NCBI GenBank assembly: GCA_041309225.1
Contig: JBFYZZ010000078.1
Location: forward strand, 1 to 62,731
Direction of reading: 5' to 3'
From: Deltaproteobacteria bacterium
Lineage (GTDB): Bacteria > Myxococcota_A > UBA796 > JAFGLY01
DNA length: 62,731 bases
The notes under the pieces are model-generated. The model saw only the letters and a program-made list of their open reading frames with translations, did not search any database and had not been told where the DNA came from. Each line of letters starts with the position of its first letter. Position 1 is the first letter of the stretch. Of this stretch, positions 18,576 through 55,959 are shown piece after piece. Position numbers and translations under genes: made by a program.

Positions 18576-18860
18576 ATGAAGTACTGGCGTACTCCCCTGG
18601 ACCTGGACCACATCACGGTCCCCCGCGGCGAGGTCCACATCCTCGTCGAACGCTGCAAGGGGTGCGGCTTTTGCGTCGAGTACTGCCCCAAGGGGGTGCT
18701 GGCCATCTCCGAGGCGTTCAACCACAAGGGCTACCACCCCCCCGAGGTGGTGAAGCCCGAGGAGTGCGTGAACTGCAACCTGTGCGAGATGATCTGCCCG
18801 GACTTCGCGATCTACTCGGTGGCCCTCCCCCCGGCGCCGGCCACCGTCACGTTCCGGTAG
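18576..18860 (+). CDS. korD: 2-oxoacid:ferredoxin oxidoreductase delta subunit (2x[4Fe-4S] ferredoxin-like)
   Basis: ORF 18576..18860. Motifs CKGCGFCVEYCP and CVNCNLCEMICP. Sits directly upstream of the alpha, beta and gamma subunits (D-A-B-G/C order, as in oorDABC-type operons). Confidence 0.85.
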   Translation: MKYWRTPLDLDHITVPRGEVHILVERCKGCGFCVEYCPKGVLAISEAFNHKGYHPPEVVKPEECVNCNLCEMICPDFAIYSVALPPAPATVTFR

Positions 18861-18901
18861 CTGGGCCGCGCCGCCACGGCCGGCCCCGAGGAGGATGGTT
18901 C

Positions 18902-20059
18902 GTGTCCGCTGATCCTGCAGGAGTGCTCACCGGCGTCCACTACCTGGACGGCGACTTCGCCTGCGGCGAGGGCGCGATGGCTGCGGGGTGCCGGTTCGTG
19001 GCCGGCTACCCGATCACCCCGTCCACCGAGGTCGTGGAGCGCATCGGACGCCGATTCCCCATGATGGGGGGCGTCTTCATCCAGATGGAGGACGAGCTCG
19101 CCAGCATGGCGGCCATCGTCGGGGCGTCCTGGACCGGCACCAAGACGATGACGGTGACCAGCGGGCCGGGGTTCAGCCTGATGATGGAGAACATCGGCCT
19201 CGCCGCCATGATGGAGGCGCCCTGCGTCGTCGTGAACGTGCAGCGGGGCGGGCCCTCCACGGGCCTGCCCACCATGGTCGGCCAGGCCGACATGATGCAG
19301 GCACGCTGGGGATCCCACGGCGACTACCCCATCATCGCGCTCTGCCCGCAGTCCCCGCAGGAGGCCTTCGACCTCACGGTCGAAGCCTTCAACCTCGCTG
19401 AGACCTGGCGCACCCCGGTGCTCCTGCTCATGGACGAGTGCGTGGGCCACATGACCGAGAAGGTGGTCATCCCGCCCGCCGAGCGGATCCACGTGGTCAA
19501 GCGCAAGCTGACCGACAAAAAGCCCGAGGAGTACCGTCCCTTCGACGTGGGCGACGGCTGGGTGCCCGAGTTCGCGCGGGCGGGCGACGGGTACCGGTTC
19601 CACGTCACGGGCCTCACCCACGACGAGCGCGGGTACCCGAGCATGACCGTCGAGTGCCAGGCCACGGCGATCCGGCGGCTCGTGGACAAGATCCGGCGCA
19701 ATGCGGACCGCATCGTCCGGTTCGAGGAGGATGGCGTCGACGACGCCGACGTGGTCGTGGTCGCCTACGGCATCACAGCCCGCGTCGCGCGGATGGCGAT
19801 CGAGATGGCGCGGGCGCAGGGGGCCAGGGTCGGCTTCCTGCGCCTCGTCGTGGCGTGGCCGTTCCCGGAGGCGCGGATCCGGGAGCTGGCCGGCCGGGTC
19901 CGTGCCTTCGTGGTGCCCGAGATCAACCTCGGGCAGATGGCCCTCGAGGTCGAACGCTGCGCGGCCGGACAGGCGCGCACGTCGTGCGTCTCCCACGCCG
20001 GCGGCGGCGTGCACGACCCCGAGGAGATCTGCCGCGCGATCCTGGAGGCCGTCCGATGA
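18902..20059 (+). CDS. korA: 2-oxoacid:ferredoxin oxidoreductase alpha subunit
   Basis: Part of ORF 18662..20059. GTG 18902 follows GAGGAGGA. Motifs GEGAMAAGCRFVAGYPITPSTE and TSGPGFSLMMENIG. Confidence 0.85.
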   Translation: MSADPAGVLTGVHYLDGDFACGEGAMAAGCRFVAGYPITPSTEVVERIGRRFPMMGGVFIQMEDELASMAAIVGASWTGTKTMTVTSGPGFSLMMENIGLAAMMEAPCVVVNVQRGGPSTGLPTMVGQADMMQARWGSHGDYPIIALCPQSPQEAFDLTVEAFNLAETWRTPVLLLMDECVGHMTEKVVIPPAERIHVVKRKLTDKKPEEYRPFDVGDGWVPEFARAGDGYRFHVTGLTHDERGYPSMTVECQATAIRRLVDKIRRNADRIVRFEEDGVDDADVVVVAYGITARVARMAIEMARAQGARVGFLRLVVAWPFPEARIRELAGRVRAFVVPEINLGQMALEVERCAAGQARTSCVSHAGGGVHDPEEICRAILEAVR

Positions 20060-20946
20060 GCCCCGCTTCCGAGCAGCGTCCCGGCGAGGAGCAGCATCCC
20101 ATCACGCCCTACATCCGCATGGACCGGATGCCCCACATCTGGTGCCCCACCTGCGGCATCGGGACCGTCGTGAAGTGCTACGTCCAGGCGCTCCTCGAGG
20201 AGGAGATCGACCTCGACAAGGTGGCGGTCGTGTCGGGCATCGGCTGCACCGGCCGCGTGGCCGGCTACGTCAAGCTCGACTCCTTCCACTCCACGCACGG
20301 CCGCGCCATCCCCTTCGCCACGGGCCTCAAGCTCTGCCGGCCCGAGCTGCTGGTCACCGTGTTCTCGGGGGACGGCGACCTGGTCGGCATCGGCGGCAAC
20401 CACTTCATCCACGCCGCCCGCCGCAACCAGGATCTCCTCGTCATCCTGGTCAACAACTTCATCTATGGCATGACCGGCGGGCAGAACGCACCCACCACCC
20501 CGCTTGGAGCGAAGTCGTCGACCATGTCGTTCGGCAACTTCGAGCGTCCTTTCAGTCTGCCGCACCTCGCGGCGTCGTGCGGGGCCACCTACGTCGCCCG
20601 GTGGACGTCCCTCCACATCCGGCGCCTCACCCGGTCCTTCCGGGAGGCCAGCCGGCGCAGGGGCTTCCGGTTCATCGAGGTCATCGCGCCCTGCTCCACC
20701 CTGTACGCTCGCCTGAACAAGCTGGGCACGGGCTACGACCTCATGAAGTTCTACCACGACTACGCCGAGATTCGGAACGGGGCGGACACCCGGGAGCTGG
20801 ACATCGAGTTCCAGTCCCGGATCGTGTGCGGCAAGTTCGTCGACGTGGAGAAGCCCACCTACCAGCAGGCCATGGACGCCCACTACCGCAAGGCCCTGGG
20901 GTCCAGCTACGTGCCCATGAAGCCGGAGGGAGGGTGGCTGCCATGA
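20056..20946 (+). CDS. korB: 2-oxoacid:ferredoxin oxidoreductase beta subunit (TPP/[4Fe-4S])
   Basis: Part of ORF 19438..20946. ATGA overlap with the korA stop. Motifs WCPTCGIG, GIGCTGR and GDGDLVGIGGNHFIHAARRN (TPP-binding GDG). Confidence 0.85.
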   Translation: MSPASEQRPGEEQHPITPYIRMDRMPHIWCPTCGIGTVVKCYVQALLEEEIDLDKVAVVSGIGCTGRVAGYVKLDSFHSTHGRAIPFATGLKLCRPELLVTVFSGDGDLVGIGGNHFIHAARRNQDLLVILVNNFIYGMTGGQNAPTTPLGAKSSTMSFGNFERPFSLPHLAASCGATYVARWTSLHIRRLTRSFREASRRRGFRFIEVIAPCSTLYARLNKLGTGYDLMKFYHDYAEIRNGADTRELDIEFQSRIVCGKFVDVEKPTYQQAMDAHYRKALGSSYVPMKPEGGWLP

Positions 20947-21530
20947 ACCGGACCGAGATCCGCATCACGGGGTTCGGCGGCCAGGGCGTCGTCCTGTGCG
21001 GCTACGTCATCGGCCGTGCATGCGCCATCCAGGCGGGCCAGCACGCCACCATGATCCAGTCCTTCGGGCCCGAGGCCCGGGGCTCGTCGTGCAGCGCCAC
21101 CCTGGTCGTCTCCGACCAGCCCGTGCTGTACCCCTACATCCGCCACCCGGACATCTTCGTCGTGATGTCCAACGACGGCTACGAGAAGTACGCCTCCGAG
21201 CTCAAGGACGACGCGGTGATCGTGTACGAGCGGGATCTGGTCCACCCGGAGCCCCGGCCCGGCCAGCGGGCCTACGGCGTGCCCTCCACCCGCATCGCCG
21301 AGAAGCTGGGGCGGGCCCTCATCCAGAACATCGTGATGCTCGGCTTCTTCGGTGCCGTGACGCGCATCGTGCCCCGGGACGAGATGCGGGAGGCGGTCCG
21401 GAATTCGGTGCCCGCCGGCACCGAGGCGCTCAACCTGAAGGCGTTCGACGCCGGATGGGCCTGGTTCGACGAGCAATACGGCGCCGACGGGGCTCCAGCC
21501 GGTGCGGCGCGTTCCGCGACCACGGGGTGA
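20943..21530 (+). CDS. korG: 2-oxoacid:ferredoxin oxidoreductase gamma subunit
   Basis: Part of ORF 19701..21530. ATGA overlap with korB. N-terminus IRITGFGGQGVVLCG is typical of gamma subunits. Confidence 0.85.
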   Translation: MNRTEIRITGFGGQGVVLCGYVIGRACAIQAGQHATMIQSFGPEARGSSCSATLVVSDQPVLYPYIRHPDIFVVMSNDGYEKYASELKDDAVIVYERDLVHPEPRPGQRAYGVPSTRIAEKLGRALIQNIVMLGFFGAVTRIVPRDEMREAVRNSVPAGTEALNLKAFDAGWAWFDEQYGADGAPAGAARSATTG

Positions 21531-21533
21531 GCC

Positions 21534-24500
21534 ATGACCACCGACGCTGCCCCTCCCCGCCGCGCCCTGGTGATCGGAGGCGGGATCGCGGGGATCCAGG
21601 CCGCCCTCGACCTCGCGAGCGCCCGGGTGCGCGTCACCCTGGTGGAGACGTCGCCGTCGCTGGGCGGGCGGATGGCCCAGCTGGACAAGACCTTCCCCAC
21701 CATGGACTGTGCGATATGAATCCTCGGCCCTAAGGCCATGGATGCCGGTCGGCATCCCCTCATCGACGTCGTCACCCACGCAGAGGTCGTCGCCTGCAGC
21801 GGCGAGCCGGGGGCGTTCCGGGTCCGGGTCCGGAAGCGGCCGCGCTACGTCCGGGAGGATCGCTGCGTGGCCTGCGGGCTCTGCGTGGTTGCGTGCCCGC
21901 AGGTGGGCGGCAACGAGTTCGACATGGGGATCAAGGCCCGGAAGGCCATCTACCGGCCGTTCCCGCAGTCCGTGCCCGCGACCTACGTGGTGGACCCGGA
22001 CGCCTGCCTCAACTTCCTCAACTTCCTGACCCCTCGCCAGCGCGATCGCCTCGAGCGCATCCGCTCGATCAAGGCCCGGAAGGACCCGGCGTACCGCACC
22101 GACTTCCTGGCCTGCGGCCACTGCTTGGCGGCCTGCGAGGTCCAGGCCATCGACTTCGACATGGCCCCCGAGGAGTTCGACCTCGACGTGGGCGCGATCC
22201 TCGTCGCCACGGGGTTCCAGGAGTTCGACGCCCGGGCGCTGCGCACCTACGGCTACGGCCGCCTGCCCAACGTGGTGACCAGCCTCGAGCTCGAGCGGAT
22301 GCTCAACGCCTCGGGCGTCACCCAGGGCCACGTGATCCGGCCCAGCGACGCCCGCACGCCCCGCCGGATGGTCTTCGTGCAGTGCGTGGGCGCCCGGGGC
22401 GAGGGGGGTCGTCCCTACTGCAGCCGGTTCTGCTGCATGAACGCCGTGAAGGACTCCCTTCTCGTGCGCCAGCACGATCCGGGGGTGGAGGAGGTCACCA
22501 TCCTCTACACGGACATGCGCGCCTTCGGGAAGGGGTTCGACGACTTCGTCGAGCGCGCCCGCCGCGAGCGGAGCGCCCGCTTCATCCGGGGCCGGCCGGC
22601 CACGATCCGCCACGACCCCACCGACGACACGCTCGAGGTCTTCGTGGAGGACACCCTCGCCCACGAGCCGATGCGGATCCGGGCCGATCTCGTGGTCCTC
22701 TCGGTGGCGGCGGCCCCCAACGAGGGCGCCGTGGAGCTGGCTCGGATGCTCGGGATCGAGACCGACGTCTACGGCTTCATCGCCCGCCTGGACCCCGCCG
22801 TCTCGGCGGTGGAGACCCGCCGCGAGGGGGTGTTCGTGGCCGGCAGCGCGGTCGGGCCGCAGGTCATCCCCGACTGCGTGGCCCAGGCCTCCGCCGCCGC
22901 CGCACGGGCCGCACGCTTCCTGGCCGCCGAGCGGGTCGAGGAGGACCGGACGCCCCCGCCTCCCCTGGATCTCTCGGGCCCTCCCCGCATCGGCGTCCTG
23001 GTCTGCCACTGCGGGGTCAACATCGCGGGCGTCCTCGACGTGAAGGCCCTGGCCGCCCATGCGGCTGCCCAGCCCGGGGTCGTGGTGGCGGTGGACGACG
23101 CCTTCGCCTGCTCCTCCACCGGCCAGGAGACGCTCGCAGCGCTCGTGGCCGAGCACCGGCTCAACCGCGTGGTGGTGGCGGCGTGCACGCCCCGCACCCA
23201 CGAGCCCGTCTTCCGGGAGACCTGCGCCCGGCTGGGCTTCAACCCCTACCTCCTGGAGATGGTCAACATCCGCGACCAGTGCTCCTGGGTCCACGCCGGC
23301 CACCCGGCCGAGGCCCAGGAGAAGGCCCGGGCGCTGCTCCGGATGGGCATCGCCCGCGCGCGCCACCTCGAGCCCCTCGAGCAGGGGCGGGCGCCGGTCA
23401 CGCGCCATGCGCTCGTCGTCGGCGGGGGCATCGCGGGCATCCAGGCGGCCACCGACCTCGCGGAGCAGGGCTTCCCGGTCACGCTCGTGGAAGCGGCCTC
23501 CCGGCTGGGCGGCCGACTCGCCGCCCCCCACCTGTGGCGGCTCTACCCCAACGACCGGGCGGCCTCCGAGGTCCTCGCCCGCAAGGTGGAGCGCCTCCAC
23601 GCGAGCGGGGCCCGGGTGCTCACCGGTACCGAAGTCACGGGGATCACGGGCTTCGTCGGCTCGTTCCAGGCCACGCTCCGGGGCGCGGAGGACGAGATCC
23701 TGCCCGTGGGGGTGGTCATCCTGGCCTTCGGGGCCGACCTCGCCGACCCCGGTGGAGCGTACGGCCACGGCCGGCTCCCCAACGTGATCACCAGCGAGGA
23801 CCTCGAGCGCGCGTTCCACGAGGGGGGGCCGCGCATCGACGGGGCCCTGCCCCGGAGCGCGGCCTTCGTGCTCTGCGTCGGCTCCCGGGAGGAGCACGGC
23901 TTCACCGGGTGCTCCCGGTACTGCTGTCCCACAGCCGTGAAGCAGGCCCTCGCGCTGGCCCGCCAGGGCGTGGACTGCACGGTGTTCTACCGAGACATCC
24001 GCACGGTCTCGTGGGGCACCGAAGAGATGTACCGCGAGGCCCGCGGCGCCGGCGTGCTGTTCGTGCGCATCCCGCCCGGCGAGCGTCCGCGGGTGCTGGG
24101 CGAAACCCGCGCCGAGCGGGTCCGCTGCCGCGACGACCTCCTGGGCCGGGAGATCGAGGTGCCGGCGGACCTCGTGGTGTTGAGCGTGGGGATGCGACCG
24201 CGCCAACCCGAGACCGCCCACTTCCACGACATCCTCAAGGTGAGCGTGGGCCTCGACGGGTTCTTCCTGGAGCGCCACCCGGAGCTGGCCCCGGTGGAGA
24301 CCGCCGTCGAGGGCGTCTTCCTGGCGGGCACCGTGCAGGGGCCGAAGGACCTCGTGGACACCGTGGCCCAGGCATCCGCCGCCGCGGCCAAGGCCTCCGT
24401 GCTGCTCGCCCACGACCAGATCCGGCTCGATCCGGCGGTGGCCGTGGTGGATCCCCTGAAGTGCCGCGGCTGCGGCCAGTGCGTCGAGATCTGCAGGTTC

Positions 24501-24683
24501 CAGGCCCCCTCCCTCAAGGAGATCGAGCCGGGCGCCTGGATCGCGGAGGTGAACGCCTCCCTGTGCAAGGGCTGCGGCACCTGCGCCTCGTGGTGCCCCT
24601 CCGGCGCCATCTCGGCCCGGCACTTCACGGAGCGCCAGATCGTCTCCATGGTGGACGCCCTCTTCGCGGAGGGATCGCGATGA
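21534..24683 (+). CDS. hdrA: HdrA-like flavoprotein, tandem two-unit form, selenocysteine-containing (UGA 21717..21719 recoded)
   Basis: ORFs 21534..21719 and 21738..24683 are in the same frame, separated only by TGA plus 6 sense codons. Read-through gives [22 protein letters not shown], colinear with FPTLDCAACILTPKMV in the Cys paralogues at 42824 and 48393. Two FAD Rossmann motifs ([32 protein letters not shown]). Internal HdrA N-domain Cys set ([10 protein letters not shown] / FACSSTG / VAACTP). Ferredoxin-type Cys clusters, including C-terminal [11 protein letters not shown] and [12 protein letters not shown]. Confidence 0.8.
21740..21757 (+). promoter_or_regulatory. SECIS-like hairpin (7-bp stem GGAUGCC/GGCAUCC, GGUC loop) downstream of UGA 21717
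   Basis: Perfect inverted repeat ggatgcc-ggtc-ggcatcc read directly. The loop starts 30 nt after the U of UGA. The identical element follows the second in-frame UGA at 26895. Confidence 0.5.
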
Positions 24684-25111
24684 CCGCCCCCGCCGCCACC
24701 TGGAACCCGCGCATCGTCGTCTTCGCCTGCAACTGGTGCTCCTACGCCGGTGCCGACACCGCGGGGGTCTCGCGCGTCCAGCACCAGCCCCACTTCCGGA
24801 TCATCCGGGTGATGTGCTCGGGCCGCATCCAGCCCTCCTTCGTGCTCCGTGCCTTCGAGAAGGGCGCCGACGGCGTCCTGGTGTCCGGGTGCCACATCGG
24901 CGACTGCCACTACCTGTTCGGGAACGAACGGGCGGTGGAGCAGTTCGAGAAGACCCGCGCCGTGACGCGCGTGCTCGGGCTGGAGGACGACCGGCTGCGC
25001 CTGGAGTGGATCTCCGCCGCCGAGGGCGCCCGGTTCGCCCAGGTCATCGACGAGTTCACCGACCGCGTGCGGGCCCTGGGCCCCAGCCCCCTGGCCGCGG
25101 AGGCTCCATGA
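24680..25111 (+). CDS. mvhD: MvhD-like [2Fe-2S] electron-transfer subunit
   Basis: Part of ORF 21893..25111. ATGA overlap with the hdrA stop. Motifs [29 protein letters not shown] and LEWISAAEG. Confidence 0.85.
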
Positions 25112-26280
25112 GCAGCGCCTGCCGCGAGCGCCTCTCTGCCATCGCCGCCCGGACCCGCGCCTGGGCCTGCTACGACTGCGGCAAGTGCACGGCCACCTGC
25201 CCCGTCACCCGGATCGGCGGGTCGCTCTCGCCCCGCCGCACGGTGCTCTCCACCCACCTCCCGCACGCCGACCCGGCCGTCCACTCCGCCGACCTCGCCT
25301 CCTGCCTCACGTGCCGCGCCTGCGACCTCCGGTGCCCGGTCCAGGTGGACTACACGGGCCTCGTCCGGGAGCTGCGCACCCTCGCCCACGAGGAGGGCGC
25401 CGAGCCCGAGTGCCCCCACGGCGGGGCCCTCCAGTCCCTCATGCGGATGATGGCGCGGGGCACCCAGCGCCAGCAGCGCCTCGGCTGGATCGGGAGCGAC
25501 CTCCGCACGGATCCGGCCCGGGGCCACGTGTTCCTCTGGACGGGCTGCACCGTCTACTACGACGCCTTCTTCCCCGAGTATGGCATGCGCACGCTCGACG
25601 GCACCCGCGCCGCCGTCCGCCTGCTCAACGCGCTCGGGGAGGTGCCGGTGGTCTCCCCCGAGGAGGCGTGCTGCGGCCACGACCTCCTCTGGAACGGCGA
25701 TCGGCCGTCGTTCGAGGCGCTCGCCCGCCGCAACGCCGCCCTCCTGCGCGCGAGCGGCGCGAGCGTGGTGGTCGCGCCCTGTGCCGAGTGCGCCCGCACC
25801 CTCCGCCTCGACTATGCGCCGTTCCTGGGCGCGGGCGCTCCGCGGATCCTGCACCTCTCCGAGTACCTCCTCGAGCGGATCGCCGAGCTCCCCCTCACCC
25901 GGCCGGAGGCCGTGCGGGTCACCTACCAGGATCCCTGCCGCCTGGGCCGCCACCTCGGCGTGGTGGACGCCCCGCGTCGCCTGCTCGAAGCCGTGCCGGG
26001 CCTGGAGCGGGTGGAGATGGCCCACCACGGCCGCAACGCCACCTGCTGCGCCGGCGGCACCTGGTCCGCGTGCGACCGGTACGCCAAGAAGCTCCAGGTC
26101 GAACGCCTCAAGGAAGCCCGGGCCACCGGCGCGACGATTCTCGTGACCGCCTGCCCCAAGTGCCAGATCCACTTCCGCTGCGCCCAGAAGGACCCCAACC
26201 TGGGCCAGGACATCGCCATCGAGATGCGGGACGTCGCCCAGGTGCTGGCCGACGCCCTCCGACCCCTGGAGGCTCCATGA
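25108..26280 (+). CDS. HdrC-HdrB fusion (HdrD-like) Fe-S/CCG-domain subunit
   Basis: Part of ORF 24736..26280, with ATGA overlap. N-terminal [12 protein letters not shown] and [12 protein letters not shown] (2x[4Fe-4S]). Cys-rich CCG-type segments follow ([32 protein letters not shown]). Confidence 0.8.
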
Positions 26281-28739
26281 CCGATCCCGTCCAGAATCCT
26301 CCGAGCGACGAGGAGGTGCGCGTCGGCGTCTTCGTCTGCGACTGCGGCCTCAACATCGCGGGCGCCGTGGACTGCGGCGCCGTGGCGGAGTTCGCCGCCA
26401 CGCTGCCGGACGTGACCACGGTGGTCCGCAACAAGTACACCTGCGCGGATCCGGGCCAGAACGAGATCCGGAACGCGATCCGCCAGCACCACCTCAACCG
26501 GGTGGTGGTGGCTTCCTGCACCCCGCGCCAGCACGAGCCGACGTTCCGGCAGTGCGTGCTCGAGGCCGGCCTCAATCCCTACCTCATGGAGATGGCCAAC
26601 CTCCGCGAGCACTGCGCCTGGGTCCACCCCAACGACCGCGAGGCCGCCACGGCCAAGGCCATGGATCTCGTGGCCAGCGCCGTGGCCAAGGCCCGCTTCC
26701 TCCAGCCCCAGGAGGAGATGGTGGTCCCCGTCACGCGCCGGGCGCTCGTGATCGGCGGCGGGGTCGCCGGGATCGAGGCGGCGCTCGAGCTCGCGGATCA
26801 GGGGCACAAGGTCACGCTGGTCGAGAAGCAGCCCTCGATCGGCGGGATCATGGCCCAGCTCGACAAGACCTACCCCACCATGGACTGTAGCATATGAATC
26901 CTCGGGCCCAAGGCCATGGATGCCGGTCGGCATCCCAACATCGAGCTCCTGACCTTCTCCGAGGTCGACGACGTCTCCGGCTACGTGGGCAACTTCACGG
27001 TCCGGATCCGGAAGAAGGCCCGCTACGTGGACCCCACGGCCTGCAACGCCTGCGGGGAGTGCGCCAAGGTCTGCCCGCAGGTCCGCCCCGACGAGTACCA
27101 GATGGGGCTCTCGGCCCGCAAGGCCATCTACATCCCCTTCCCCCAGGCGGTGCCCTGCGCCTACGTCCTCGACATGGAGAGCTGTCTGGGCAACATCCCC
27201 ATCGCCTGCGGCAAGTGCGCCGACGCCTGTGAGAAGAAGGCCATCGACTACGACGATCGCGACGAGATCGTCACCCGCGAGATCGGCTCGATCATCGTGG
27301 CGGTCGGGGCCGACGTCTACGACCCCACCCAGGACGACGAGTACGGCTACACCCGGTTCCGGAACGTGATCACCTCCATGGAGTTCGAGCGCCTGATCTG
27401 CGCGGGCGGCCCCACCGGCGGGCACTTCGTCCGGCCGAGTGACCGGCGGCGGCCGACGCGGATCGGGTTCGTCCAGTGCGTGGGCTCCCGGAATCCGAGG
27501 CTGAACCGTCCCTGGTGCTCCAACATCTGCTGCATGAACACGGTCAAGGACACCCTGCTCCTCGCCGACCACTACCCCGACACCGAAAACGTGGTGTTCT
27601 ACCAGGATATTCGTTCGTTCGGCAAGGGCTTCGAGGACATGTTCCAGCGCTCCAAGCAGGCGGGCACCCGGTACGTGCGCGGCCTGCCGGGGGAGATCGT
27701 GGAGGACCCGGCCACGGGCAACCTCCACGTCACCGTGGAGAACACCACCGCCGGCCGGATCGAGCGGTACGAACTGGACATGGTCGTGCTCTCGGTGGGC
27801 GTGGAGCCTCCCAGGGACCTCGCGAGGATCTCGGGCCTGCTCACGCTCTCCAAGACGTCCGACGGCTTCTTCATGGAGTCGCATCCCAAGCTCAAGCCGG
27901 TCGACGCGCCCACCCGTGGCGTCTACTTCGCGGGCTTCTGCGAGTCCCCCAAGGACATCAAGGACTCGGTCTGCCAGGCCGGGGCCGCGGCGTCCCGGGC
28001 CGGAGCCCTGCTCAACGCGGGCCGCATCCGGATCGAGGCCATCACCTCCCGGATCGATCCCGCAGCCTGCACGAAGTGCGGCCTGTGCGCCCAGGTCTGC
28101 CCCTACGGGGCGATCCGGTGGCAGAAGGGCGAGGTGGCCACGGTGGTGGAGGCGGCCTGCGCCGGGTGCGGCGCCTGTGGCGCCACCTGCCGATCCGGCG
28201 CCATCACGATGCGGCACTTCACCGACGACCAGCTCCTGGCCCAGGTCCGGGCGGTGCTCGCGCATCGGCCCGAGGACAAGGTGTTCGTGTTCGCCTGCAA
28301 CTGGTGCTCCTACGCGGGCGGGGACATGGCGGGCATCTCCCGCATGGCCTACCCCGCCTCCAACCGCGTGGTGCGGACCATGTGCTCCGCCCGTGTCTCG
28401 GAGGAGATGGTGGTCGAGGCCTTCCGGTGCGGTGCACCCGTGGTGCTCGTCTCGGGCTGTCACTACGCGGACTGCCACTACATCAGCGCCAACCGCCAGA
28501 CCGTGAAGCGGGTGGATCGGCTGTGGGACCGACTCGAGCGGCTGGGCATCCGGCCCGAGCGGCTGCAGCTCGAGTGGATCAGCGCGGCGGAGGGCCAGAA
28601 GTTCGCCGCCGTCATGCGGCGCCTCGAGGATCTCAGGCGCACCGTCACCGCCGAGGAGATCGCCCTCACGCGCGCGGCGCTCGCCGCGCCGGCGAAGCCC
28701 GCGCCGAAGCCCGCCCGGGCCACCGCGCCCCAGGAGTGA
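26277..28739 (+). CDS. hdrA: HdrA-MvhD fusion flavoprotein, selenocysteine-containing (UGA 26895..26897 recoded)
   Basis: The tail of ORF 25185..26897 and ORF 26916..28739 share one frame across the TGA, giving [22 protein letters not shown]. Full HdrA N-domain ([10 protein letters not shown] / YTCADPG / VASCTP). FAD motif [16 protein letters not shown]. Fused C-terminal MvhD module ([38 protein letters not shown]). Confidence 0.8.
26918..26935 (+). promoter_or_regulatory. SECIS-like hairpin (GGAUGCC-GGUC-GGCAUCC) downstream of UGA 26895
   Basis: Same 18-nt element and same spacing as at 21740..21757. Confidence 0.5.
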
Positions 28740-28742
28740 GCC

Positions 28743-28916
28743 ATGGCTCCCACGACCGAGACGTTCCGGTGCATGGCCTGCGGCCACGAGTACGAGGAGC
28801 TCGTGGAGAAGGGCGTGGACCGGGAGCGGCAGTGCCCCCGCTGTCGCTCCAACAGCATCCGCCAGCTCAAGCGGAAGCCCGCGCCGGACGCGGGCGCCGG
28901 GGGATCGGCGACATGA
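28743..28916 (+). CDS. FmdB-type zinc-ribbon mini-protein (57 aa)
   Basis: Not in the supplied ORF track. Hand translation: [57 protein letters not shown]. CxxC...CxxC ribbon. Starts 4 nt after the hdrA stop, and its stop overlaps the next start (ATGA). Confidence 0.55.
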
Positions 28917-30325
28917 GCGACGAGAAGCCGGTTCTCACCGTCGACTTCGCATTCCGGCGCGAGCTGGCCCGGAAGGTGGAGGGCAACCTCGCCTCCTTCT
29001 GCTACCAGTGCGGGGCCTGCGTGGGGGACTGCCCGGCCGCGGCCTACGATCCGGCCTTCAATCCACGGACCCTCATGCTGGAGGTCCTGTACGGCGCGAG
29101 CGGGCACCTGCTCGGGCCCGACTCGCCGCTGTGGCTCTGCACGAACTGCTACGCCTGCCACGAACGCTGCCCCCAGCAGGTGAAGCCGGTCGAGGTCATC
29201 ATCGCGCTCAAGAACATGCTCCACGACCGGGGCCTGCACCCCCCGGCCGTGGACCGGGTGATCCGGTCGTTCGAGGAGACCGGCCGCACCACGCCGGTCA
29301 CGCCGGCCGTGGAGCGCACGCGGGAGGCCCTCGGCCTCCCCCCGCTCGAGCCCGTGCCGGTGGCGGAGATCCGCGCCCTCCTGGGCGACGACGCCCCCGC
29401 CGAGGCGCCACGGTCGGCACGGCTCCCGGCCCCGCCACCCTCCCCGGCGCGCCGGTTCGCCTTCTTCCCCGGCTGCCTGATCCCCACCCGCATGCCCGCC
29501 ATGGAGCTCGCCATCCGGGAGGCGCTCGCCCGGCTGGAGGTGGAGGTGGTGGACCTGCCCGGGGCCTCGTGCTGCCCGGATCCCATCTACTTCAAGTCGA
29601 GGGACAAGGCCGACTGGCTCGCGGTGGCCGCCCGCAACCTCTCCCTGGCCGAGGATCTCGGGCTCGACCTCTTCACCAACTGCTCGGGGTGCACCGCCAC
29701 GCTGTCCGAGACCGTGCACCTCATGCAGGACCCCGTCCTCCGCGAGCGGACCAACAACCGGCTCGCCCGGATCGGACGGACCTACCAGGGCACCTCCAGG
29801 GTCCGCCACGTGGTCACCCTGCTCCGCGACGTCGTGGGGTACGAGGCGATCCGGGCCTCGGTCGTCCGCCCCCTCGAGGGGCTGAAGGTGGCCATCCACT
29901 ACGGCTGCCACCTCCTCAAGCCCAGCGCCGTCATGAACGTGGACGACCCGGACGATCCGCATGTCCTGGAAGACCTCGTGCGTGCGCTCGGGGCCGAGCC
30001 GGTGCGCCACCGCAACTGGTACCTGTGCTGCGGCAAGGCCTGCCAGGACGAGGACCTCCCGTCGCGCATGATGCGCGATCTCCTCGGCGCGGTCCACGCG
30101 GAGGAGGCCGAGCTGCTCTGCCTCATCTGCCCCACCTGCTTCGCCCAGTTCGACTACGGCCAGGCCCGCGTGGCGAAGCAGTTCGACGCCGACTTCCACA
30201 TGCCTGTCGTATACTTGTTCCAGCTCCTGGCGTTCGCGCAGGGCACGCCCTACGAGCGGCTGGGGTTCGACCGTCAGCGGTTCAAGCCGGAGGCGCTCCG
30301 AAGGTTCGAGACCCCCGGGCCGTGA
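28913..30325 (+). CDS. HdrC-HdrB fusion Fe-S/CCG-domain subunit
   Basis: Part of ORF 27476..30325. Motifs [12 protein letters not shown] and [12 protein letters not shown]. HdrB-like half has [26 protein letters not shown] and ICPTCFAQF. Confidence 0.8.
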
Positions 30326-50199: not shown

Positions 50200-51357
50200 G
50201 TGCACATGGCCATCCGCGTCAATCCCCTCCTCATCGACGACCTCGAACGGTACGGCGCCGAGGACGTCCAGAAGTGCTACCACTGCGGCAACTGCTCGGC
50301 GGTCTGCCCGCACACCGACGAGACCTTCCTCTTCCCCCGCCGCTCCATGCGCCTCCTGCAGATGGGGCTCGAGCGGCGGATCGAGGGGTCGCTCGAGCCC
50401 TGGCTCTGCTACTACTGTGGCCAGTGCTCCGACCAGTGCCCGCGCGACGCCGAGCCGGGCGAGACCATGATGAGCCTCCGCCGCTGGCTCACGTCCCGCT
50501 ACGACTTCACCGGCATCTCCAGGCTCTTCTACCGCTCCCCGAAGGCCGAGGTCCTGGCCATGGCCGGCCTGGGGCTCGCCGTGGGCATCGGCCTGGTGGC
50601 CTGGGGGCTGGGCACGGGCGGTGACATCCGCATCTACGACGGCCCGGGCGCGTTCCTCAGGAGCGAGCACGTCCATCGCTTCGACTGGGGGATGGCCGCG
50701 GTGCTCGTGGGCCTCCTGGGCACCAACGCCGTCCGGATGTGGTGGTTCACCATGTACCGGGACAAGGAGTCCCGGGTCCCGCTCTCCCTCTACATCAAGC
50801 ACGTCCTCACGCTGCCCTACCAGTTCTTCACCCAGAAGCGGTATGCCGAGTGCGGCGAACGGAAGCCCTGGCTGCTCCACCTGGGCCTGATGCTCTCCTA
50901 CCTCACGATGCTCGTGCTCATCATGTTCTTCCTGGGCACGATGCAGAGCGACACGTGGCACTGGCAGGCCCACGCGTTCGGCTACCTGGCCACGGTGGGG
51001 CTGCTGGGGGCCACCGCCTGGATGATCCGGGGCCGCGTTCGGAAGCAGACGCCGCTCCACCGCCATTCGCACGAGTCCGACTGGGTGTTCCTGGTCCAAC
51101 TCTTCGCGGTGGCCTTCACCGGCATCCTCCAGCACGTCCTCCACCGCGCGGGCCAGCCGCTGGCCGGGAACGTCGTCTACGTGATCCACATGATGGTGGC
51201 GGTGCCGATGCTGGTCCTCGAGGTGCCCTTCAGCAAGTGGGCCCACCTCGTCTACCGGCCTCTCGCCATGTACTTCGCGGCCATGCGTCGCGAGGTGCTG
51301 CGGGCGCGGGCCCCCGCCCCCCTCCCTGCCGGCGCTCGGCGCGTCCAGGCGGCCTGA
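50200..51357 (+). CDS. QmoC/HdrE-like subunit: N-terminal 2x[4Fe-4S] HdrC-like domain fused to a multi-TM cytochrome-b-type membrane domain
   Basis: ORF 50200..51357. Motifs CYHCGNCSAVCP and CYYCGQCSDQCP. About 5-6 hydrophobic helices follow, carrying several His (HVHRFDWG, HLGLMLSY, HWQAHAFGY, LQHVLH, VIHMMV). Confidence 0.75.
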   Translation: MHMAIRVNPLLIDDLERYGAEDVQKCYHCGNCSAVCPHTDETFLFPRRSMRLLQMGLERRIEGSLEPWLCYYCGQCSDQCPRDAEPGETMMSLRRWLTSRYDFTGISRLFYRSPKAEVLAMAGLGLAVGIGLVAWGLGTGGDIRIYDGPGAFLRSEHVHRFDWGMAAVLVGLLGTNAVRMWWFTMYRDKESRVPLSLYIKHVLTLPYQFFTQKRYAECGERKPWLLHLGLMLSYLTMLVLIMFFLGTMQSDTWHWQAHAFGYLATVGLLGATAWMIRGRVRKQTPLHRHSHESDWVFLVQLFAVAFTGILQHVLHRAGQPLAGNVVYVIHMMVAVPMLVLEVPFSKWAHLVYRPLAMYFAAMRREVLRARAPAPLPAGARRVQAA

Positions 51358-51368: not shown

Positions 51369-53093
51369 ATGCAGAGCTGCAAGATCGGCGTCTACATCTG
51401 CCAGTGCGGGACCAACATCGCCAAGATGGTCGACTGCGAGGCCCTGGTGGCGTTCGCGGAAACCCTTCCGGAGGTGGCCCTCGCCAAGACCTACAAGTAC
51501 ATGTGCTCCAACCCGGGTCAGGACATGATCGTCCAGGACATCCAGGCCAACGGGCTGGACCGGGTGGTGGTGGCGGCCTGCAGCCCCCGGATGCACGAGC
51601 GGACGTTCCGGAACGCGCTCCAGGTGGCGGGCCTGAACCCGTACTTCTTCGAGATGGCCAACATCCGGGAGCACTGCTCCTGGGTCCACGACGACCCGGT
51701 GGCGGCCACCCAGAAGGCCAAGGCCCTCGTGCGGGGCGCCGTGCTCCGGGTGGCTCGGCACGAGGCGCTCGAGCGCAAGACCGTGGACATGTGCCCCGAG
51801 GTGCTCGTCATCGGGGGCGGGATCGCCGGCCTCACCGCTGCCCTCGACATCGCCGACGCCGGCCACCGCGTGCACCTGGTCGAGCGGCAGGGCTCGCTGG
51901 GGGGGAACCTCGCGCGGATCGACCTCACCGCACCCTTCCTCAACGCGGCGCGGGACCTCCTCACGGAGCGCATCACCCGGGTCACCGAGAGCGAACGGAT
52001 CGACGTGATGCTCCACTCCCGGGTGGTGAACCTCGATGGGTTCATCGGGAACTACCGGGCCACGGTGGAGGTCCGCGACGCCGACGGCCTGCCACGAAAG
52101 ACCGAGTTCCTCGTCGGCAACGTGATCGTCGCCACCGGCTACCAGGAGTTCGAGGCCAGCCGGATCACCCACTACGGGTACGGCAAGCTCCCCAACGTGG
52201 TCACCTCGTTCGAGTTCGAGCTGATGCTCCGCCACGGGCGGATCCAGATGGCGGACGGCCACCTCCCCCGGTTCGTGAGCATCATCCACTGCGTGGGCAG
52301 CCGCAGCCAGGAGTTCCATGGCTACTGCTCCCGCGTCTGCTGCATGACCGCCCTGAAGTACGCCCACGAGGTCCGGTCCGCCATCCCCGGCTGCCACGTG
52401 TCCGACATCTACATCGACATGCATGCGTTCGGGAAGGGCCACGAGGACTTCTACCGAAGGTCGTCCGAGGTGAAGACCCTGTTCCTCATGTACCGGAAGG
52501 GGGACCGGCCGGTCATCCGCCGGGCGGATCCGGGCGACACCTGCGACATGCTGATCGAGGTGAACGAGCAGCTCTCCGGCGAGACCATCGAGATCCCGGC
52601 CGACCTGGTGGTCCTCATGGTGGGGATGGAGGCCCGCTCCGACGCCCACGAGGTGGCCCGCCTCGTGAACATCAGCCAGGACAAGGAGGGCTGGTTCATC
52701 GAGAGCCATCCCAAGCTCGACCCGGTGGCCACCACCACCGACGGCGTCTACATCGCGGGCACCTGCGCGGCGCCCAAGGACATCCCCGACAACGTGGCCC
52801 AGGCCCGGGCGTCGGCCGCCCGGATCCTGGCCAAGGTGGCGCGGGGCAGGATCGAGGTGGACGCCGTGTACGCCGAGGTGGACGAGGCCCGCTGCTCGGG
52901 CTGCCGCATCTGCAACGACCTGTGCCCCTACAGCGCCATCGAGTTCGACGCCGTCAAGAAGGTCAGCCGCGTCATCAGCGCGGTGTGCAAGGCCTGCGGG
53001 GCCTGCGGGGCGGCCTGCCCGTCCGGCGCCATCAAGGCGCGCCACTTCACCGACGCCCAGATCTTCGCCCAGATCGAGGGGGTACTGCTATGA
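51369..53093 (+). CDS. HdrA/QmoB-like flavoprotein (intact N-terminal Cys domain, lacks the DCxxC motif)
   Basis: Part of ORF 50739..53093. Motifs ICQCGTNIA / YMCSNPG / VAACSP and [16 protein letters not shown]. The DCxxC position reads GGNLARIDLTAPF. C-terminal motifs CSGCRICNDLCP and CKACGACGAACP. Confidence 0.8.
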   Translation: MQSCKIGVYICQCGTNIAKMVDCEALVAFAETLPEVALAKTYKYMCSNPGQDMIVQDIQANGLDRVVVAACSPRMHERTFRNALQVAGLNPYFFEMANIREHCSWVHDDPVAATQKAKALVRGAVLRVARHEALERKTVDMCPEVLVIGGGIAGLTAALDIADAGHRVHLVERQGSLGGNLARIDLTAPFLNAARDLLTERITRVTESERIDVMLHSRVVNLDGFIGNYRATVEVRDADGLPRKTEFLVGNVIVATGYQEFEASRITHYGYGKLPNVVTSFEFELMLRHGRIQMADGHLPRFVSIIHCVGSRSQEFHGYCSRVCCMTALKYAHEVRSAIPGCHVSDIYIDMHAFGKGHEDFYRRSSEVKTLFLMYRKGDRPVIRRADPGDTCDMLIEVNEQLSGETIEIPADLVVLMVGMEARSDAHEVARLVNISQDKEGWFIESHPKLDPVATTTDGVYIAGTCAAPKDIPDNVAQARASAARILAKVARGRIEVDAVYAEVDEARCSGCRICNDLCPYSAIEFDAVKKVSRVISAVCKACGACGAACPSGAIKARHFTDAQIFAQIEGVLL

Positions 53094-53524
53094 GCTTCGA
53101 GCCCAGGATCGTCGGCTTCCTGTGCAACTGGTGCTCGTACACGGGAGCCGACCTCGCCGGCACGAGCCGCATCCACTACCCGCCGAACGTCCACATCATC
53201 CGGGTGATGTGCTCGGCCCGCATCGATCCCACCTTCGTGCTCAAGGCGCTCGCCCAGGGGGCCGACGGGGTGCTCGTGTGCGGCTGCCACCCGGGCGACT
53301 GCCACTACACCGACGGCAACTACAAGGCCATGCGGCGCTTCCCGCTCCTCAAGCGGGTGCTCGACGCCTACGGCCTGGAGAAGGACCGCGTGCGCCTGGA
53401 GTGGGTCAGCGCGAGCGAGGGGCAGCGGTTCGCCGACGTGGTGAGCGACATGACCGAGCGGATCCGCCCGCTGGGGCCGTGCCGCATCCGTCCCGGCTTG
53501 CAGGCCGACATGGCCGAGAGGTGA
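53090..53524 (+). CDS. mvhD: MvhD-like [2Fe-2S] subunit
   Basis: Part of ORF 51404..53524, with ATGA overlap. Motifs LCNWCSYTGADLAG, VMCSAR, VCGCHPGDCHY and LEWVSASEG. Confidence 0.85.
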   Translation: MSFEPRIVGFLCNWCSYTGADLAGTSRIHYPPNVHIIRVMCSARIDPTFVLKALAQGADGVLVCGCHPGDCHYTDGNYKAMRRFPLLKRVLDAYGLEKDRVRLEWVSASEGQRFADVVSDMTERIRPLGPCRIRPGLQADMAER

Positions 53525-53527
53525 GGC

Positions 53528-54496
53528 ATGAGTGAGACGAAAAAGCTCCAGATCGCCCTCTACTGGGGCGCCGCCTGCGGTGGCTGCGACGTGGCGGTCC
53601 TCGACACCGACGCATTCATCCTGGACGTGGCCGCGCTGGCCGACATCCGCCTCTGGCCCATCGCTGTGGACGGCAAGTACGCCGACATCGAGGCGCTGGC
53701 GGACGGCGAGCTCGACGTCGCGTTCTTCAACGGCGCGGTCCGGAACAGCGAGAACGAGCACATCGCCCGCCTCCTCAGGCAGAAGAGCCGGATCCTGGTG
53801 GCCTTCGGATCCTGCGCCCACCTGGGCGGCATCCCCGGCCTGGCCAACTTCTTCACACGCGACGAGATCATCCGCACTGCCTACCTCGACAACCCGTCCA
53901 TCGAGCCGGGCAACCGGACGGTCCCCACCCCCGAGACGCGTGTGAACGGCCACACGCTCGACATCCCGAAGTTCTACCAGCGAGTCTTCCCGCTCGAAGC
54001 GGTGGTCCCGGTCGACTACTTCCTTCCGGGCTGCCCGCCGGCCCCCGACCAGGTCCGGGCGGCCATCCTGGCCATCGCCACCGGCAACCTCCCGGCGCGC
54101 GGCTCGGTGGTGGGCGCCTCCGAGCGGGCCGTGTGCGAGGACTGCAAGCGGGAGAAGAGCGAGAAGAAGATCGGGCGGTTCTACCGGCCGTGGGAGATCA
54201 TCCAGGATCCGACGAAGTGCCTCCTCGAGCAGGGCATCGTCTGCCTGGGGCCGGCCACGCGCTCGGGCTGTGGGGTGCGCTGCCCGAACACGGGGCAGGG
54301 CTGTCGGGGCTGCTACGGACCCCTTCCCGGCGTCGTGGACCAGGGGGCCAAGGTGATCTCCTCCCTGGCCTCCGTCATCGACAGCCGGGATCCCGAGGAG
54401 ATCGAACGGATTCTGGACGGAATCCCGGATTTCACGGCCATCGCCTACCGCTTCGGACTCCCCGCTTCGCTGCTCCAGAGGAGGATTCGGGCATGA
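53528..54496 (+). CDS. mvhG: [NiFe] hydrogenase small subunit (second Mvh/group-3c-like copy)
   Basis: ORF 53528..54496. Motifs LYWGAACGGCDVAVLD, AFGSCAHLGGIP and GCPP. C-terminal clusters CEDCKREK, CLLEQGIVCLGPATRSGCGVRC and CRGCYGP. Confidence 0.85.
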   Translation: MSETKKLQIALYWGAACGGCDVAVLDTDAFILDVAALADIRLWPIAVDGKYADIEALADGELDVAFFNGAVRNSENEHIARLLRQKSRILVAFGSCAHLGGIPGLANFFTRDEIIRTAYLDNPSIEPGNRTVPTPETRVNGHTLDIPKFYQRVFPLEAVVPVDYFLPGCPPAPDQVRAAILAIATGNLPARGSVVGASERAVCEDCKREKSEKKIGRFYRPWEIIQDPTKCLLEQGIVCLGPATRSGCGVRCPNTGQGCRGCYGPLPGVVDQGAKVISSLASVIDSRDPEEIERILDGIPDFTAIAYRFGLPASLLQRRIRA

Positions 54497-55959
54497 CCCG
54501 GACCATCAGCATCGACCCGATCACCCGCCTCGAGGGGCACGGCAAGATCGAGATCTTCCTCGACGACGAGGGTGCCGTCGAGGACTGCTACTTCCAGATC
54601 CCGGAGCTGAGGGGCTTCGAGCGGTTCGTGGTGGGCCGTCCCCTCGAGGAGCTGCCCCGCATCGTCACGCGCATCTGCGGTGTCTGCCCCGCCAGCCACC
54701 ACATGGCCAGCGCCAAGGCCGTGGACGCCTGCTTCGGCGACGAGTGCCCCCCCGTGGCCCACAAGCTGCGGGACATGTACTACCACGCCCACTACATCCA
54801 CAGTCACATCGCCCACTTCTACGCCCTCGCCGCCCCCGACTTCGTCTGCGGACCCGACGCCGATCCCGCGATCCGGAACATCCTCGGCGTGGTGGCGAAG
54901 GTGGGGCTCGAGATCGGCGGCCGCGTGATCCAGGCGCGGTCTCTCGCCCAGCGGATCCAGGCCATCCTGGGCGGGCGGACCACCCACCTGGTCTGGTGCC
55001 TCCCCGGAGGCGTGGCCAAGGGACTCTCCGCCCAGGAGCTGGAGGAGATCAAGCCCATGGTGAAGGAGCTCGGCGCCTTCGCCGACTTCTCCCTCCACCT
55101 CTTCCGCCAGGTCGTGTTGGGCAACGCCCAGTACGTGGACCTCATCCTGAACGGCCCCTACACGCTCGACGTGCACAACATGGGGCTCGTGGACCGCGAC
55201 CTGGCGGTCACGTTCTACGACGGGGACGTCCGGGTCGTGGACTTCCTGGGCCGGGAGATCTGCCGCTACCCGCCCCGGGCCTACGCCGAGCACGTGGCGG
55301 AGCACGTCGAGCCCTGGTCCTACCTCAAGTTCCCCTACCTGAAGAAGCGTGGATGGAAGGGGTTCACGGAGGGCCTGGACTCCAGCCTCTACTGCGCCAC
55401 GCCGCTCTCGCGCCTCAACGTGGCCGAGCGCATGGCCACGCCGCGCGCCCAGGAGGCCCGGGAGGAGATGTACGCCACGCTCGGCGGGCGTCCCTGCCGC
55501 GCCCTCCTCGCCAACCACTGGGCCCGGCTCGTGGAGATGGTGCAGAACGCCGAGATGCTGGAGCGGTACTGCGCGGACCCCGAGATCACGAGCGACCGGT
55601 TCCGCGTGGTGCCCAGCCGCATCACCGGGGAGGGCGTGGGGATCGTCGAGGCCATGCGCGGGACGCTCACGCACCACTACACCTGCGACGAGAACGGCAT
55701 CTGCACCAGCGCGAACCTGATCGTGGGGACCACCAACAACAACGGGCCGATCCACATGGTCACGAAGAAGGTGGCCCAGGCCATGATCCAGCCCGGGAAG
55801 GACCCCGATCCGGCGATCCTCAACATGATCGAGATGGCCTTCCGGGCGTTCGATCCTTGCTTCTCGTGCGCGACCCATAGCCTTCCCGGACAGATGCCGC
55901 TCGAGGTCCAGGTCTGGAAGGGCGGCGAGCGGACCTGGCACGCGAAGCGCGGCCCCTAG
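54493..55959 (+). CDS. mvhA: [NiFe] hydrogenase large subunit (second Mvh/group-3c-like copy)
   Basis: Part of ORF 54133..55959, with ATGA overlap. Motifs [18 protein letters not shown] and DPCFSCATH. 488 aa, the same length as the first copy. Confidence 0.9.
   Translation: MTRTISIDPITRLEGHGKIEIFLDDEGAVEDCYFQIPELRGFERFVVGRPLEELPRIVTRICGVCPASHHMASAKAVDACFGDECPPVAHKLRDMYYHAHYIHSHIAHFYALAAPDFVCGPDADPAIRNILGVVAKVGLEIGGRVIQARSLAQRIQAILGGRTTHLVWCLPGGVAKGLSAQELEEIKPMVKELGAFADFSLHLFRQVVLGNAQYVDLILNGPYTLDVHNMGLVDRDLAVTFYDGDVRVVDFLGREICRYPPRAYAEHVAEHVEPWSYLKFPYLKKRGWKGFTEGLDSSLYCATPLSRLNVAERMATPRAQEAREEMYATLGGRPCRALLANHWARLVEMVQNAEMLERYCADPEITSDRFRVVPSRITGEGVGIVEAMRGTLTHHYTCDENGICTSANLIVGTTNNNGPIHMVTKKVAQAMIQPGKDPDPAILNMIEMAFRAFDPCFSCATHSLPGQMPLEVQVWKGGERTWHAKRGP

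Follow-up and report, generated by a model that had tools for sequence, protein, structure and literature searches.

The contig JBFYZZ010000078.1 of a Deltaproteobacteria bacterium, a stretch of 62,731 nucleotides that is referred to as the window below, carries on its forward strand (positions 21534-24683) a gene in which, as judged from domain matches and aligned motifs, two complementary halves of the electron-bifurcating flavoprotein HdrA are joined in one chain. Its product is quite probably an asymmetric single-chain pseudo-dimer that contains selenocysteine (Sec) and is of the kind described as type II HdrA or found in BamE. The idea of a pseudo-heterodimer or self-heterodimer is not new, as it has been published (PMC9012536, PMC12054007, 10.64898/2026.04.10.717634) and the form occurs in hundreds of genomes; what the window adds is a bacterial, Sec-containing member with other neighbours.

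The rationale comes from the solved Mvh-Hdr complex, in which Cys197 of one HdrA ligates the [4Fe-4S] cluster in the N-terminal domain (N-domain) of the other HdrA (PMC9012536). As a consequence, a half that has the N-domain and lacks Cys197 depends on a half that carries Cys197, while a donor half that has lost the N-domain cluster imposes no reverse dependence, and this is exactly the pattern encountered here. An earlier interpretation of the window, made from the sequence alone (the sequence-only reading), had proposed a covalent pseudo-heterodimer with such a division of labour, and the proposal holds: Sec62 occupies the Cys197 position and the losses in the two halves are complementary.

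Two complementary halves in one polypeptide

The fused protein matches HdrA of M. thermolithotrophicus (5ODC chain A; E 1.2e-203) in four stretches that are collinear but permuted (Table 1), and two Pyr_redox/NAD_binding_8 stretches in the polypeptide correspond to two TrxR (thioredoxin reductase)-like flavin adenine dinucleotide (FAD) domains. The HdrA-like genes of the window were placed in a multiple alignment with the 5ODC chain A sequence, which was rebuilt from the match alignments. Together, the permuted double match and the alignment bear out the earlier division of the 1049 codons into two HdrA units, and also the content assigned to each of them. Unit 1 opens directly at the GxGxxG FAD fold, has neither N-terminal domain nor C-terminal ferredoxin, and carries the motif DCAI-U, in which the sole in-frame TGA of the gene is codon 62 (nt 21717-21719). 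Unit 2 (residues ~483-1049) has the full set of N-domain cysteines and a second FAD fold, the positions of Cys194 and Cys197 being occupied by R675 and S678 and the inserted ferredoxin being deleted. The start of its N-domain at nt 22980 agrees with the boundary drawn earlier at 22980/22985.

The hallmarks of an HdrA core, i.e. GxGxxG, CX(n)CxxxCC and the equivalents of Lys409 and Glu356, were found in both units and likewise in the products of two further genes of the window, which start at 48393 and 51369 and are discussed below. Lys306 of unit 1 corresponds to Lys409 of HdrA and to the Lys280 that BamE has at its bifurcating FAD, and together with the Glu it gives unit 1 the positions of a bifurcating HdrA flavin (for the role of this Lys see 10.64898/2026.04.10.717634, the BamE preprint, and PMC12054007); in unit 2 the same position is Lys803 (23940-23942). 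In total 28 cysteines, invariant across the homologue alignment, make up seven [4Fe-4S]-binding sequence motifs, so that the fused pseudo-dimer is predicted to hold 2 FAD and seven [4Fe-4S] sites, as compared to 2 FAD and 12 clusters in the homodimer. Every domain of the fused protein thus has its match in the HdrA homodimer, the equivalents of Cys197, the 4-Cys cluster, Lys409 and Glu356 being kept, but HdrA is symmetric with four domains per chain, whereas the fused protein has one of each except for the TrxR core. The inserted ferredoxin of unit 1 contains, in addition, a family-specific insertion of 33 aa (22011-22109) that is also present in close relatives.

The fused form was recovered from at least 596 species genomes (596 of the 599 pattern matches encode relatives) in a scan that used a six-sequence alignment and of which 80 relatives, Geobacter not among them, were kept. 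Nearly all of these 80 are full-length and collinear; among their sources are Asgard archaea, Thermoplasmata, Bathyarchaeia, Methanomassiliicoccales, ANME-2, Methanoperedens and Methanosarcina as well as Desulfobacterales, Dehalococcoidia and Bacillota. At closer range, more than 120 clusters (90% identity) of sequences 70-74% identical to the fused protein, almost all annotated at ~983 aa, derive from Phycisphaerae, Planctomycetota, Acidobacteriota, Holophagae and Thermoanaerobaculales. Of the 150 best representatives of clusters at 50% identity, most have a length of ~950-1150 aa, or of ~1300-1500 aa where a GltD-like insertion is present. A second fused paralogue, again with Sec, is encoded in a Phycisphaerales genome (locus L001, 13090-17598; 1503 codons); where unit 1 has its 33-aa insertion, this paralogue accommodates an NAD(P)H module of the GltD-like kind, and in this it resembles HdrL proteins from Desulfobacterium autotrophicum.

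The complementarity was scored in 21 fused homologues from clusters at no more than 50% identity. The Lys of unit 1 and the four N-domain cysteines of unit 2 are invariant in all 21, unit 2 has a Cys at 194/197 in none (0/21), and in each of the 19 sequences whose complete N-terminus allowed the pair to be scored, unit 1 has Cys-x-x-Cys, an in-frame UGA being counted as Cys. At the Lys position of unit 2, on the other hand, the homologues have K, T, H, E, Q, D or R. The pattern of complementarity in these sequences is not a matter of chance. An assembly or frameshift artefact is ruled out by the conservation of the architecture in hundreds of genomes, and a simple circular permutation of one HdrA by the presence of two complete FAD folds.

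Selenocysteine at codon 62

The UGA at codon 62 is, on sequence grounds, a Sec codon, because the stretch upstream of it has the third-position G+C content (GC3) of coding DNA, the N-terminus it encodes is conserved, a hairpin resembling a selenocysteine insertion sequence (SECIS) follows, and homologues have Cys. Specifically, an analysis of G+C by codon position gave a GC3 of 0.90 for the 62 codons 5' of the UGA, and these codons are conserved at the protein level in relatives from the Phycisphaerales (L001) and the Acidobacteriota (L002), which have TGA at the same codon. Remoter fused homologues have Cys at the position of Sec62 and a frame that is open throughout. Starting just 5' of the UGA and extending to ~+39, the sequence is invariant at almost all nucleotides, synonymous sites included, in five genes from three genomes, whereas the flanks vary. 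The operon encodes a second selenoprotein (motif DCSI-U) with an identical hairpin; over the 150 nt that surround the UGA its gene and the fused gene share 79% identity, and from ~-6 to +41 they are almost fully identical. A scan of the region around the UGA against Rfam gave matches at chance level only and no bacterial SECIS family for the hairpin, and no sel genes were seen within the 62.7-kb window.

Were the TGA at 21717 a true stop, the product would be the 981-aa open reading frame (ORF) from 21738, without a DCxxU motif, and this is in fact how essentially all public homologues are annotated, namely as proteins of 981-985 aa preceded by a separate ORF of 66-70 aa. Such a product, however, would lose the GxGxxG strand of FAD domain 1, and the coding-type composition of the 62 codons, the preservation of their protein sequence across phyla, the continuous Cys-type homologues, the conserved hairpin and the Sec of M. 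maripaludis HdrA all argue against it, so that we regard termination at this codon as scarcely credible. The split into ORFs of 66-70 aa and ~983 aa at the Sec codon is seen in the public entries P0002-P0120 and in L001 (9770-12958) and L002 (9782-12949). As a result, nearly all database entries lack the FAD-binding N-terminus together with the Cys/Sec pair, and the public annotation of this widely distributed subfamily carries a systematic error at the Sec codon.

Sec62 aligns with HdrA Cys197, and the same position is Sec197 in the HdrA of M. maripaludis, where it lies between cluster A3 and the FAD; for the Cys-Sec197 pair of that protein a selenenylsulfide relay was proposed in a 2026 study of Hdr-Vhu-Fwd (PMC13518236). 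Whether the residue at the Cys197 position, Sec in the window protein, serves as cluster ligand or as part of such a relay is a mechanistic question in this field.

Operon context, known relatives and proposed electron path

The window has a G+C content of 72%, and the fused gene lies in a tight forward-strand operon (18576-30325) in which most neighbours have overlapping stop and start codons, as apparent from codon-position G+C and inspection of the ORFs. The four genes upstream encode a 2-oxoacid:ferredoxin oxidoreductase (Kor) whose delta and beta subunits have their best matches among 2-oxoglutarate-type enzymes. The gene order from kor to hdrCB is kept in a complete Phycisphaerales genome and in an Acidobacteriota metagenome-assembled genome (MAG; L001 and L002, respectively) and in the other loci of at least 50% identity for which flanks were available. 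The kor genes are found upstream of the fused gene in L001, L002, L006, L008, L010 and L022, the synteny being seen in Planctomycetota, Acidobacteriota and one Thermoplasmata MAG, and the downstream HdrD-like gene likewise recurs in close relatives. Among 84 loci, mvhD directly 3' of the fused HdrA gene is the constant partner, being present in most of them, while the Kor, Mvh hydrogenase and HdrBC/HdrD modules vary. The adjacency of kor suggests a functional and possibly physical coupling with the fused HdrA. Just beyond the operon, a gene at 31007-31684 encodes a protein, predicted to be a lipoprotein, in which Asp-Thr/Asp-Ala repeats form a long tract.

The structurally characterized relative is BamE of Geobacter metallireducens BamBCDEFGHI (class II benzoyl-CoA reductase, BCRII), a fused HdrA dimer with permuted domains that was solved by cryo-electron microscopy. 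Its TrxR1 contains the bifurcating FAD together with Lys280 and the pair Cys59-Cys62, which is disulfide-bonded in one state, its TrxR2 a non-bifurcating FAD and Gln768, and the chain holds clusters E1-E7; BamF is the MvhD-like adaptor and BamD the HdrBC/HdrD-like exit (10.64898/2026.04.10.717634). Compared by description, the window protein shares the 59/62 numbering, the seven Cys motifs and the mvhD and hdrD-like neighbours, but it has Sec in place of Cys at position 62, Lys803 in place of Gln768, and a short canonical MvhD instead of an extended BamF. Membership of BCRII is ruled out, as neither the tungsten aldehyde oxidoreductase genes BamB/C nor BamGHI are among the ORFs of the window, which has korDABC upstream instead.

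Tandem and fused HdrAs with complementary loss of N-domain and Cys197 were described by Chadwick et al. (2022) for ANME archaea and Moorella thermoacetica, and heterodimers and self-heterodimers, respectively, were proposed for them (PMC9012536); a survey from 2025 named the fused forms type II HdrA and traced them back to two distinct type I classes (PMC12054007). The window protein shares with type II HdrA the two TrxR domains per chain and the complementarity of N-domain and Cys197, and the scan had matches in archaea too, but it represents a bacterial, Sec-containing subfamily in a Kor operon. With respect to the order of the halves, the text of PMC9012536 has the N-domain half first and the Cys197 half C-terminal in fused groups 3 and 4, whereas all fused homologues retrieved here, the loci L024 and L053 and the sequences from ANME-2 and Methanoperedens included, have the Cys197 half first.

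By analogy with the structures of Mvh-Hdr, Hdr-Vhu-Fwd and BCRII, electrons would arrive at the FAD of unit 1, which would bifurcate them. The high-potential electron would leave via the cluster of unit 1 to the HdrD-like protein, and the low-potential electron would travel over the Cys/Sec pair and the N-domain cluster of unit 2 to the inserted ferredoxin of unit 1, and from there to ferredoxin or straight to the co-transcribed 2-oxoacid:ferredoxin oxidoreductase. The entire path may also run in reverse, i.e. as confurcation, and the flavin of unit 2 would be mainly structural. A variable Lys position in unit 2, as observed among the homologues, is what is expected for a non-catalytic flavin.

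Several points weigh against this picture. The likeness to BamE was drawn from the published description of the G. metallireducens protein, and the link to Kor is one of synteny only; the missing BamB/C and BamGHI genes imply, moreover, that the substrates differ from those of BCRII. An AlphaFold2 model of the 981-aa post-UGA ORF, built with 30 close homologues, is mediocre (pLDDT 67.8, pTM 0.51) and does not comprise residues 1-68, and it shows HdrA folds and not the intramolecular interface. Used as a Foldseek query, the model retrieved HdrA chains (5ODH/5ODC, 8RVY/8RVU and 7BKB) as best matches, followed by sHdrA and thioredoxin reductases, and among these matches from the PDB copy there were only HdrA and TrxR folds and no fused-HdrA structure. 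The 48393 and 51369 proteins, in turn, are paired by complementarity and gene adjacency only. Finally, Lys803, at whose position BamE has Gln768, is retained in unit 2 along with the equivalent of Glu356, so a second active flavin is possible, as PMC12054007 suggests for type II HdrA. Both flavins would then be catalytic, giving two sites of flavin-based electron bifurcation per chain, a proposal that was made for type II HdrA on the basis of just such residues and to which the retained GxGxxG of unit 2 also lends itself. Unit 2, however, has neither the Cys pair nor the inserted ferredoxin and hence no evident low-potential exit, its Lys is not conserved in the other fused homologues, and in BamE the second FAD lies off the branching point (10.64898/2026.04.10.717634). 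We therefore judge two catalytic flavins to be improbable and retain the asymmetric pseudo-dimer with unit 1 as its bifurcating half.

Table 1. Features of the fused gene, its operon and the split-pair cassette (nucleotide positions in the window unless residues are indicated)
Feature	Position	Strand	Remarks
fused HdrA-HdrA gene	21534..24683	+	1049 codons, one Sec; from translation, match to 5odc_A and alignment
unit 1 (aa 1-470)	21534..22943	+	TrxR-like FAD domain 1, inserted ferredoxin; matches HdrA residues 144-511
Cys59-x-x-Sec62 pair (TGT GCG ATA TGA)	21708..21719	+	aligns with HdrA Cys194/Cys197
SECIS-like hairpin GGAUGCC-GGUC-GGCAUCC	21740..21757	+	starts 23 nt after U of UGA; from folding
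unit 1 inserted ferredoxin domain	21843..22163	+	8 Cys: C111, C114, C117, C121, C158, C194, C197, C201
TrxR1 4-Cys cluster motif and Lys306	22383..22451	+	C284, C296, C300, C301
unit 2 N-terminal-type domain	22980..23378	+	C491, C493, C526, C551; matches HdrA residues 3-143
TrxR-like FAD domain 2 (unit 2)	23391..24398	+	GxGxxG, cluster C781/C793/C797/C798 and Lys803 all retained
unit 2 C-terminal 2x[4Fe-4S] ferredoxin	24435..24623	+	C977-C987, C1011-C1021; Pfam Fer4, HdrA residues 571-652
match stretch 1	query residues 9-159		HdrA residues 144-294
match stretch 2	query residues 192-409		HdrA residues 294-511
match stretch 3	query residues 483-653		HdrA residues 3-173
match stretch 4	query residues 863-1046		HdrA residues 471-652
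korDABC	18576..21530	+	four-subunit 2-oxoacid:ferredoxin oxidoreductase; korC ends 3 nt before fused gene
korD	18576-18860	+	
korA	18977-20059	+	NCBIfam KorA 548.7 bits (cut-off 411)
korB	20056-20946	+	
korC	20943-21530	+	
mvhD (FlpD, 143 aa)	24680..25111	+	start overlaps stop of fused gene; Pfam FlpD 6.1e-52
HdrD-like protein, BamD counterpart	25108..26280	+	HdrC-type dicluster and two CCG domains; Pfam CCG 1.4e-27
full-length HdrA-MvhD fusion, second selenoprotein	26277..28739	+	DCSI-U; TGA 26895-26897, identical hairpin 26918-26935
zinc-ribbon gene, 57 aa	28743-28916	+	between hdrA-mvhD and hdrCB; same place in L001 and L002
hdrC-hdrB fusion	28913-30325	+	
split donor half, 601 aa	48393..50198	+	N-domain degenerate (1/4 Cys), DCAAC 48936-48950, inserted ferredoxin, no C-terminal ferredoxin
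QmoC-like membrane protein	50200..51357	+	HdrC-type dicluster and transmembrane domain; between the two halves
split acceptor half, 574 aa	51369..53093	+	four N-domain Cys, C-terminal ferredoxin, no inserted ferredoxin
mvhD-mvhG-mvhA, F420-non-reducing [NiFe] hydrogenase	53090..55959	+	directly 3' of acceptor half

The split pair and the origin of the asymmetry

A second cluster in the window starts with a complete HdrABC-MvhDGA set (41414-47733), in which hdrC, hdrB and a canonical hdrA (42824-44818) precede mvhDGA, and with a maturation protease gene, and continues with a cassette of seven genes (48393-55959) that encode a donor half, a QmoC-like protein, an acceptor half, MvhD, MvhG, MvhA and a maturation protease. 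The complementarity that had been read from the sequence of the two halves is upheld by the alignment: the 48393 protein has DCAAC and a single one of the four N-domain cysteines, and the 51369 protein is its mirror image, with no Cys at the positions of 194/197 (51936-51956). The latter combination, i.e. four N-domain cysteines, no Cys at 194/197 and a retained Lys409, is found in 120 of 120 relatives of the 51369 protein, and the degenerate N-domain in both retrieved relatives of the 48393 protein (n=2). The order of the seven genes is kept in L003 (5014-13118) and L004 (5000-13219), which come from a Chrysiogenia MAG and another metagenomic genome. The 48393 and 51369 proteins would thus assemble as separate chains into a heterodimer of this kind, with the adjacent MvhDGA hydrogenase as its source of electrons and the QmoC-like subunit as its link to the membrane.

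The cassette resembles one for a Qmo-type complex that has a [NiFe] hydrogenase of its own. The sequence-only reading had called the asymmetric dimers reminiscent of QmoA/QmoB, and for the split cassette this analogy is apt, although Qmo membership in the strict sense does not follow from it. On the side of likeness, QmoABC combines two unlike HdrA-related flavoproteins with a membrane subunit that has HdrC-like and HdrE-like parts, and QmoB is linked to an MvhD module, just as a QmoC-like gene lies between the genes of the split pair, with mvhD next after them. NCBIfam qmoC NF038018 matches the 50200 protein over its full length (E 9.6e-52), yet the 176.6 bits fall short of the cut-off of 300. 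QmoA is described as having FAD and one 4-Cys cluster (QmoA and QmoB were compared by description), whereas the donor half of 601 aa combines an inserted ferredoxin with a relic N-domain. The mvhD at 53090 is, furthermore, a separate gene to which a full MvhGA hydrogenase is attached, and no aprBA or sat was seen among the ORFs of the window, the cassette being linked to mvhDGA both here and in L003 and L004.

The origin of the two asymmetric forms was addressed with a neighbour-joining tree of 56 sequences (327 shared TrxR-core columns, 200 bootstraps; QmoA and QmoB absent), a crude method in which deep nodes are weak. The 48393 type forms a clade in 200/200 replicates and is sister to the canonical HdrA of the window in 148/200, but groups with unit 1 in 3/200. 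Unit 2, stand-alone HdrAs that lack Cys197 and the 51369 type come together in 120/200, and in 113/200 all sequences that lack Cys197 separate from all those that have it. Furthermore, N-domain function was lost in different ways in the two donor halves, namely by deletion in unit 1 and by decay to a Cys-less relic in the 48393 type. An inserted ferredoxin is still present in unit 2 of the fused homologue P0245 and in two stand-alone Cys197-less HdrAs, P0366 and P0380, which lie on the Cys197-less side beside unit 2, P0380 within the unit 2 group itself; their placement implies that unit 2 and the 51369 type probably lost the inserted ferredoxin in separate events. P0366 (644 aa) and P0380 (654 aa) have all four domains but no Cys194/Cys197, and would also need a partner that donates Cys197.

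Two alternatives have to be weighed here. The 48393 and 51369 proteins might not be paired at all, each acting alone or with the canonical HdrA (42824), for which a complete HdrABC-MvhDGA set stands ready directly upstream. A homodimer of the 51369 protein would, however, leave an invariant N-domain cluster site without its Cys197 ligand, the complementarity is kept in all 120 relatives, and in the distant L003 and L004 the two genes stay adjacent, with only the qmoC-like gene between them, while the upstream canonical set is absent from the region fetched. Unpaired proteins are in our view very unlikely, and we keep to the heterodimer of two chains. Somewhat more weight, though still far from an even chance, is to be given to a single origin of the asymmetric dimer, with gene fusion or fission as the link between the fused form and the split one. 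It is in line with the absence of both Cys194/197 and the inserted ferredoxin from unit 2 and the 51369 type, with their position on the same side of the tree and together with the stand-alone Cys197-less HdrAs, and with the single fusion of two pre-existing classes inferred in PMC12054007. The donor halves, nevertheless, speak for separate origins, given that unit 1 and the 48393 type are almost never monophyletic, that the 48393 type goes with the canonical HdrA3 instead, and that one has deleted the N-domain where the other kept a Cys-less one; the probably separate deletions of the ferredoxin point in the same direction. The claim that asymmetry evolved twice, for which a phylogeny of the four half-units had been suggested as a test of sister relationship, is consequently supported in part: the donor halves are not sisters, whereas the acceptor halves group weakly with each other and with the stand-alone Cys197-less HdrAs. 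That it did so in this locus is not tenable, as both cassettes are conserved across phyla and not specific to this organism. The donor halves would have independent origins, whereas an ancient ancestor without Cys197 is possibly common to the acceptor halves, so that the asymmetry on the acceptor side may predate both systems.

Taken together, the two clusters can be read as two uncharacterised bacterial bifurcating complexes, one with a Kor-coupled fused HdrA and one a membrane-bound QmoC/Mvh complex, with donor halves of independent origin; as a whole, this joint reading is possible but doubtful. If it is true, complex 1 would be Kor-(fused HdrA)-MvhD-HdrD, with the inserted ferredoxin of unit 1 wired directly to Kor, much as BCRII wires BamE to BamBC and the methanogen Hdr is wired to formylmethanofuran dehydrogenase, and bifurcation could in this way drive reductive carboxylation, or the process could run in the opposite direction. 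Complex 2 would be a membrane-anchored MvhAGD-(48393/51369)-QmoC-like assembly that couples the oxidation of H2 to the reduction of quinone and ferredoxin, and would in effect be a Qmo-type complex with the hydrogenase partner that has long been postulated for Qmo. Less charted in the window are, besides the retained Lys803, the conserved contexts that involve Kor and QmoC/Mvh, which point to partner reactions. At the level of the family, the window lends bacterial support to a rule proposed for archaea and seen in BamE, namely that the bifurcating modules built on HdrA can pass from a symmetric homodimer to an asymmetric dimer with one electron path, either fused or split.

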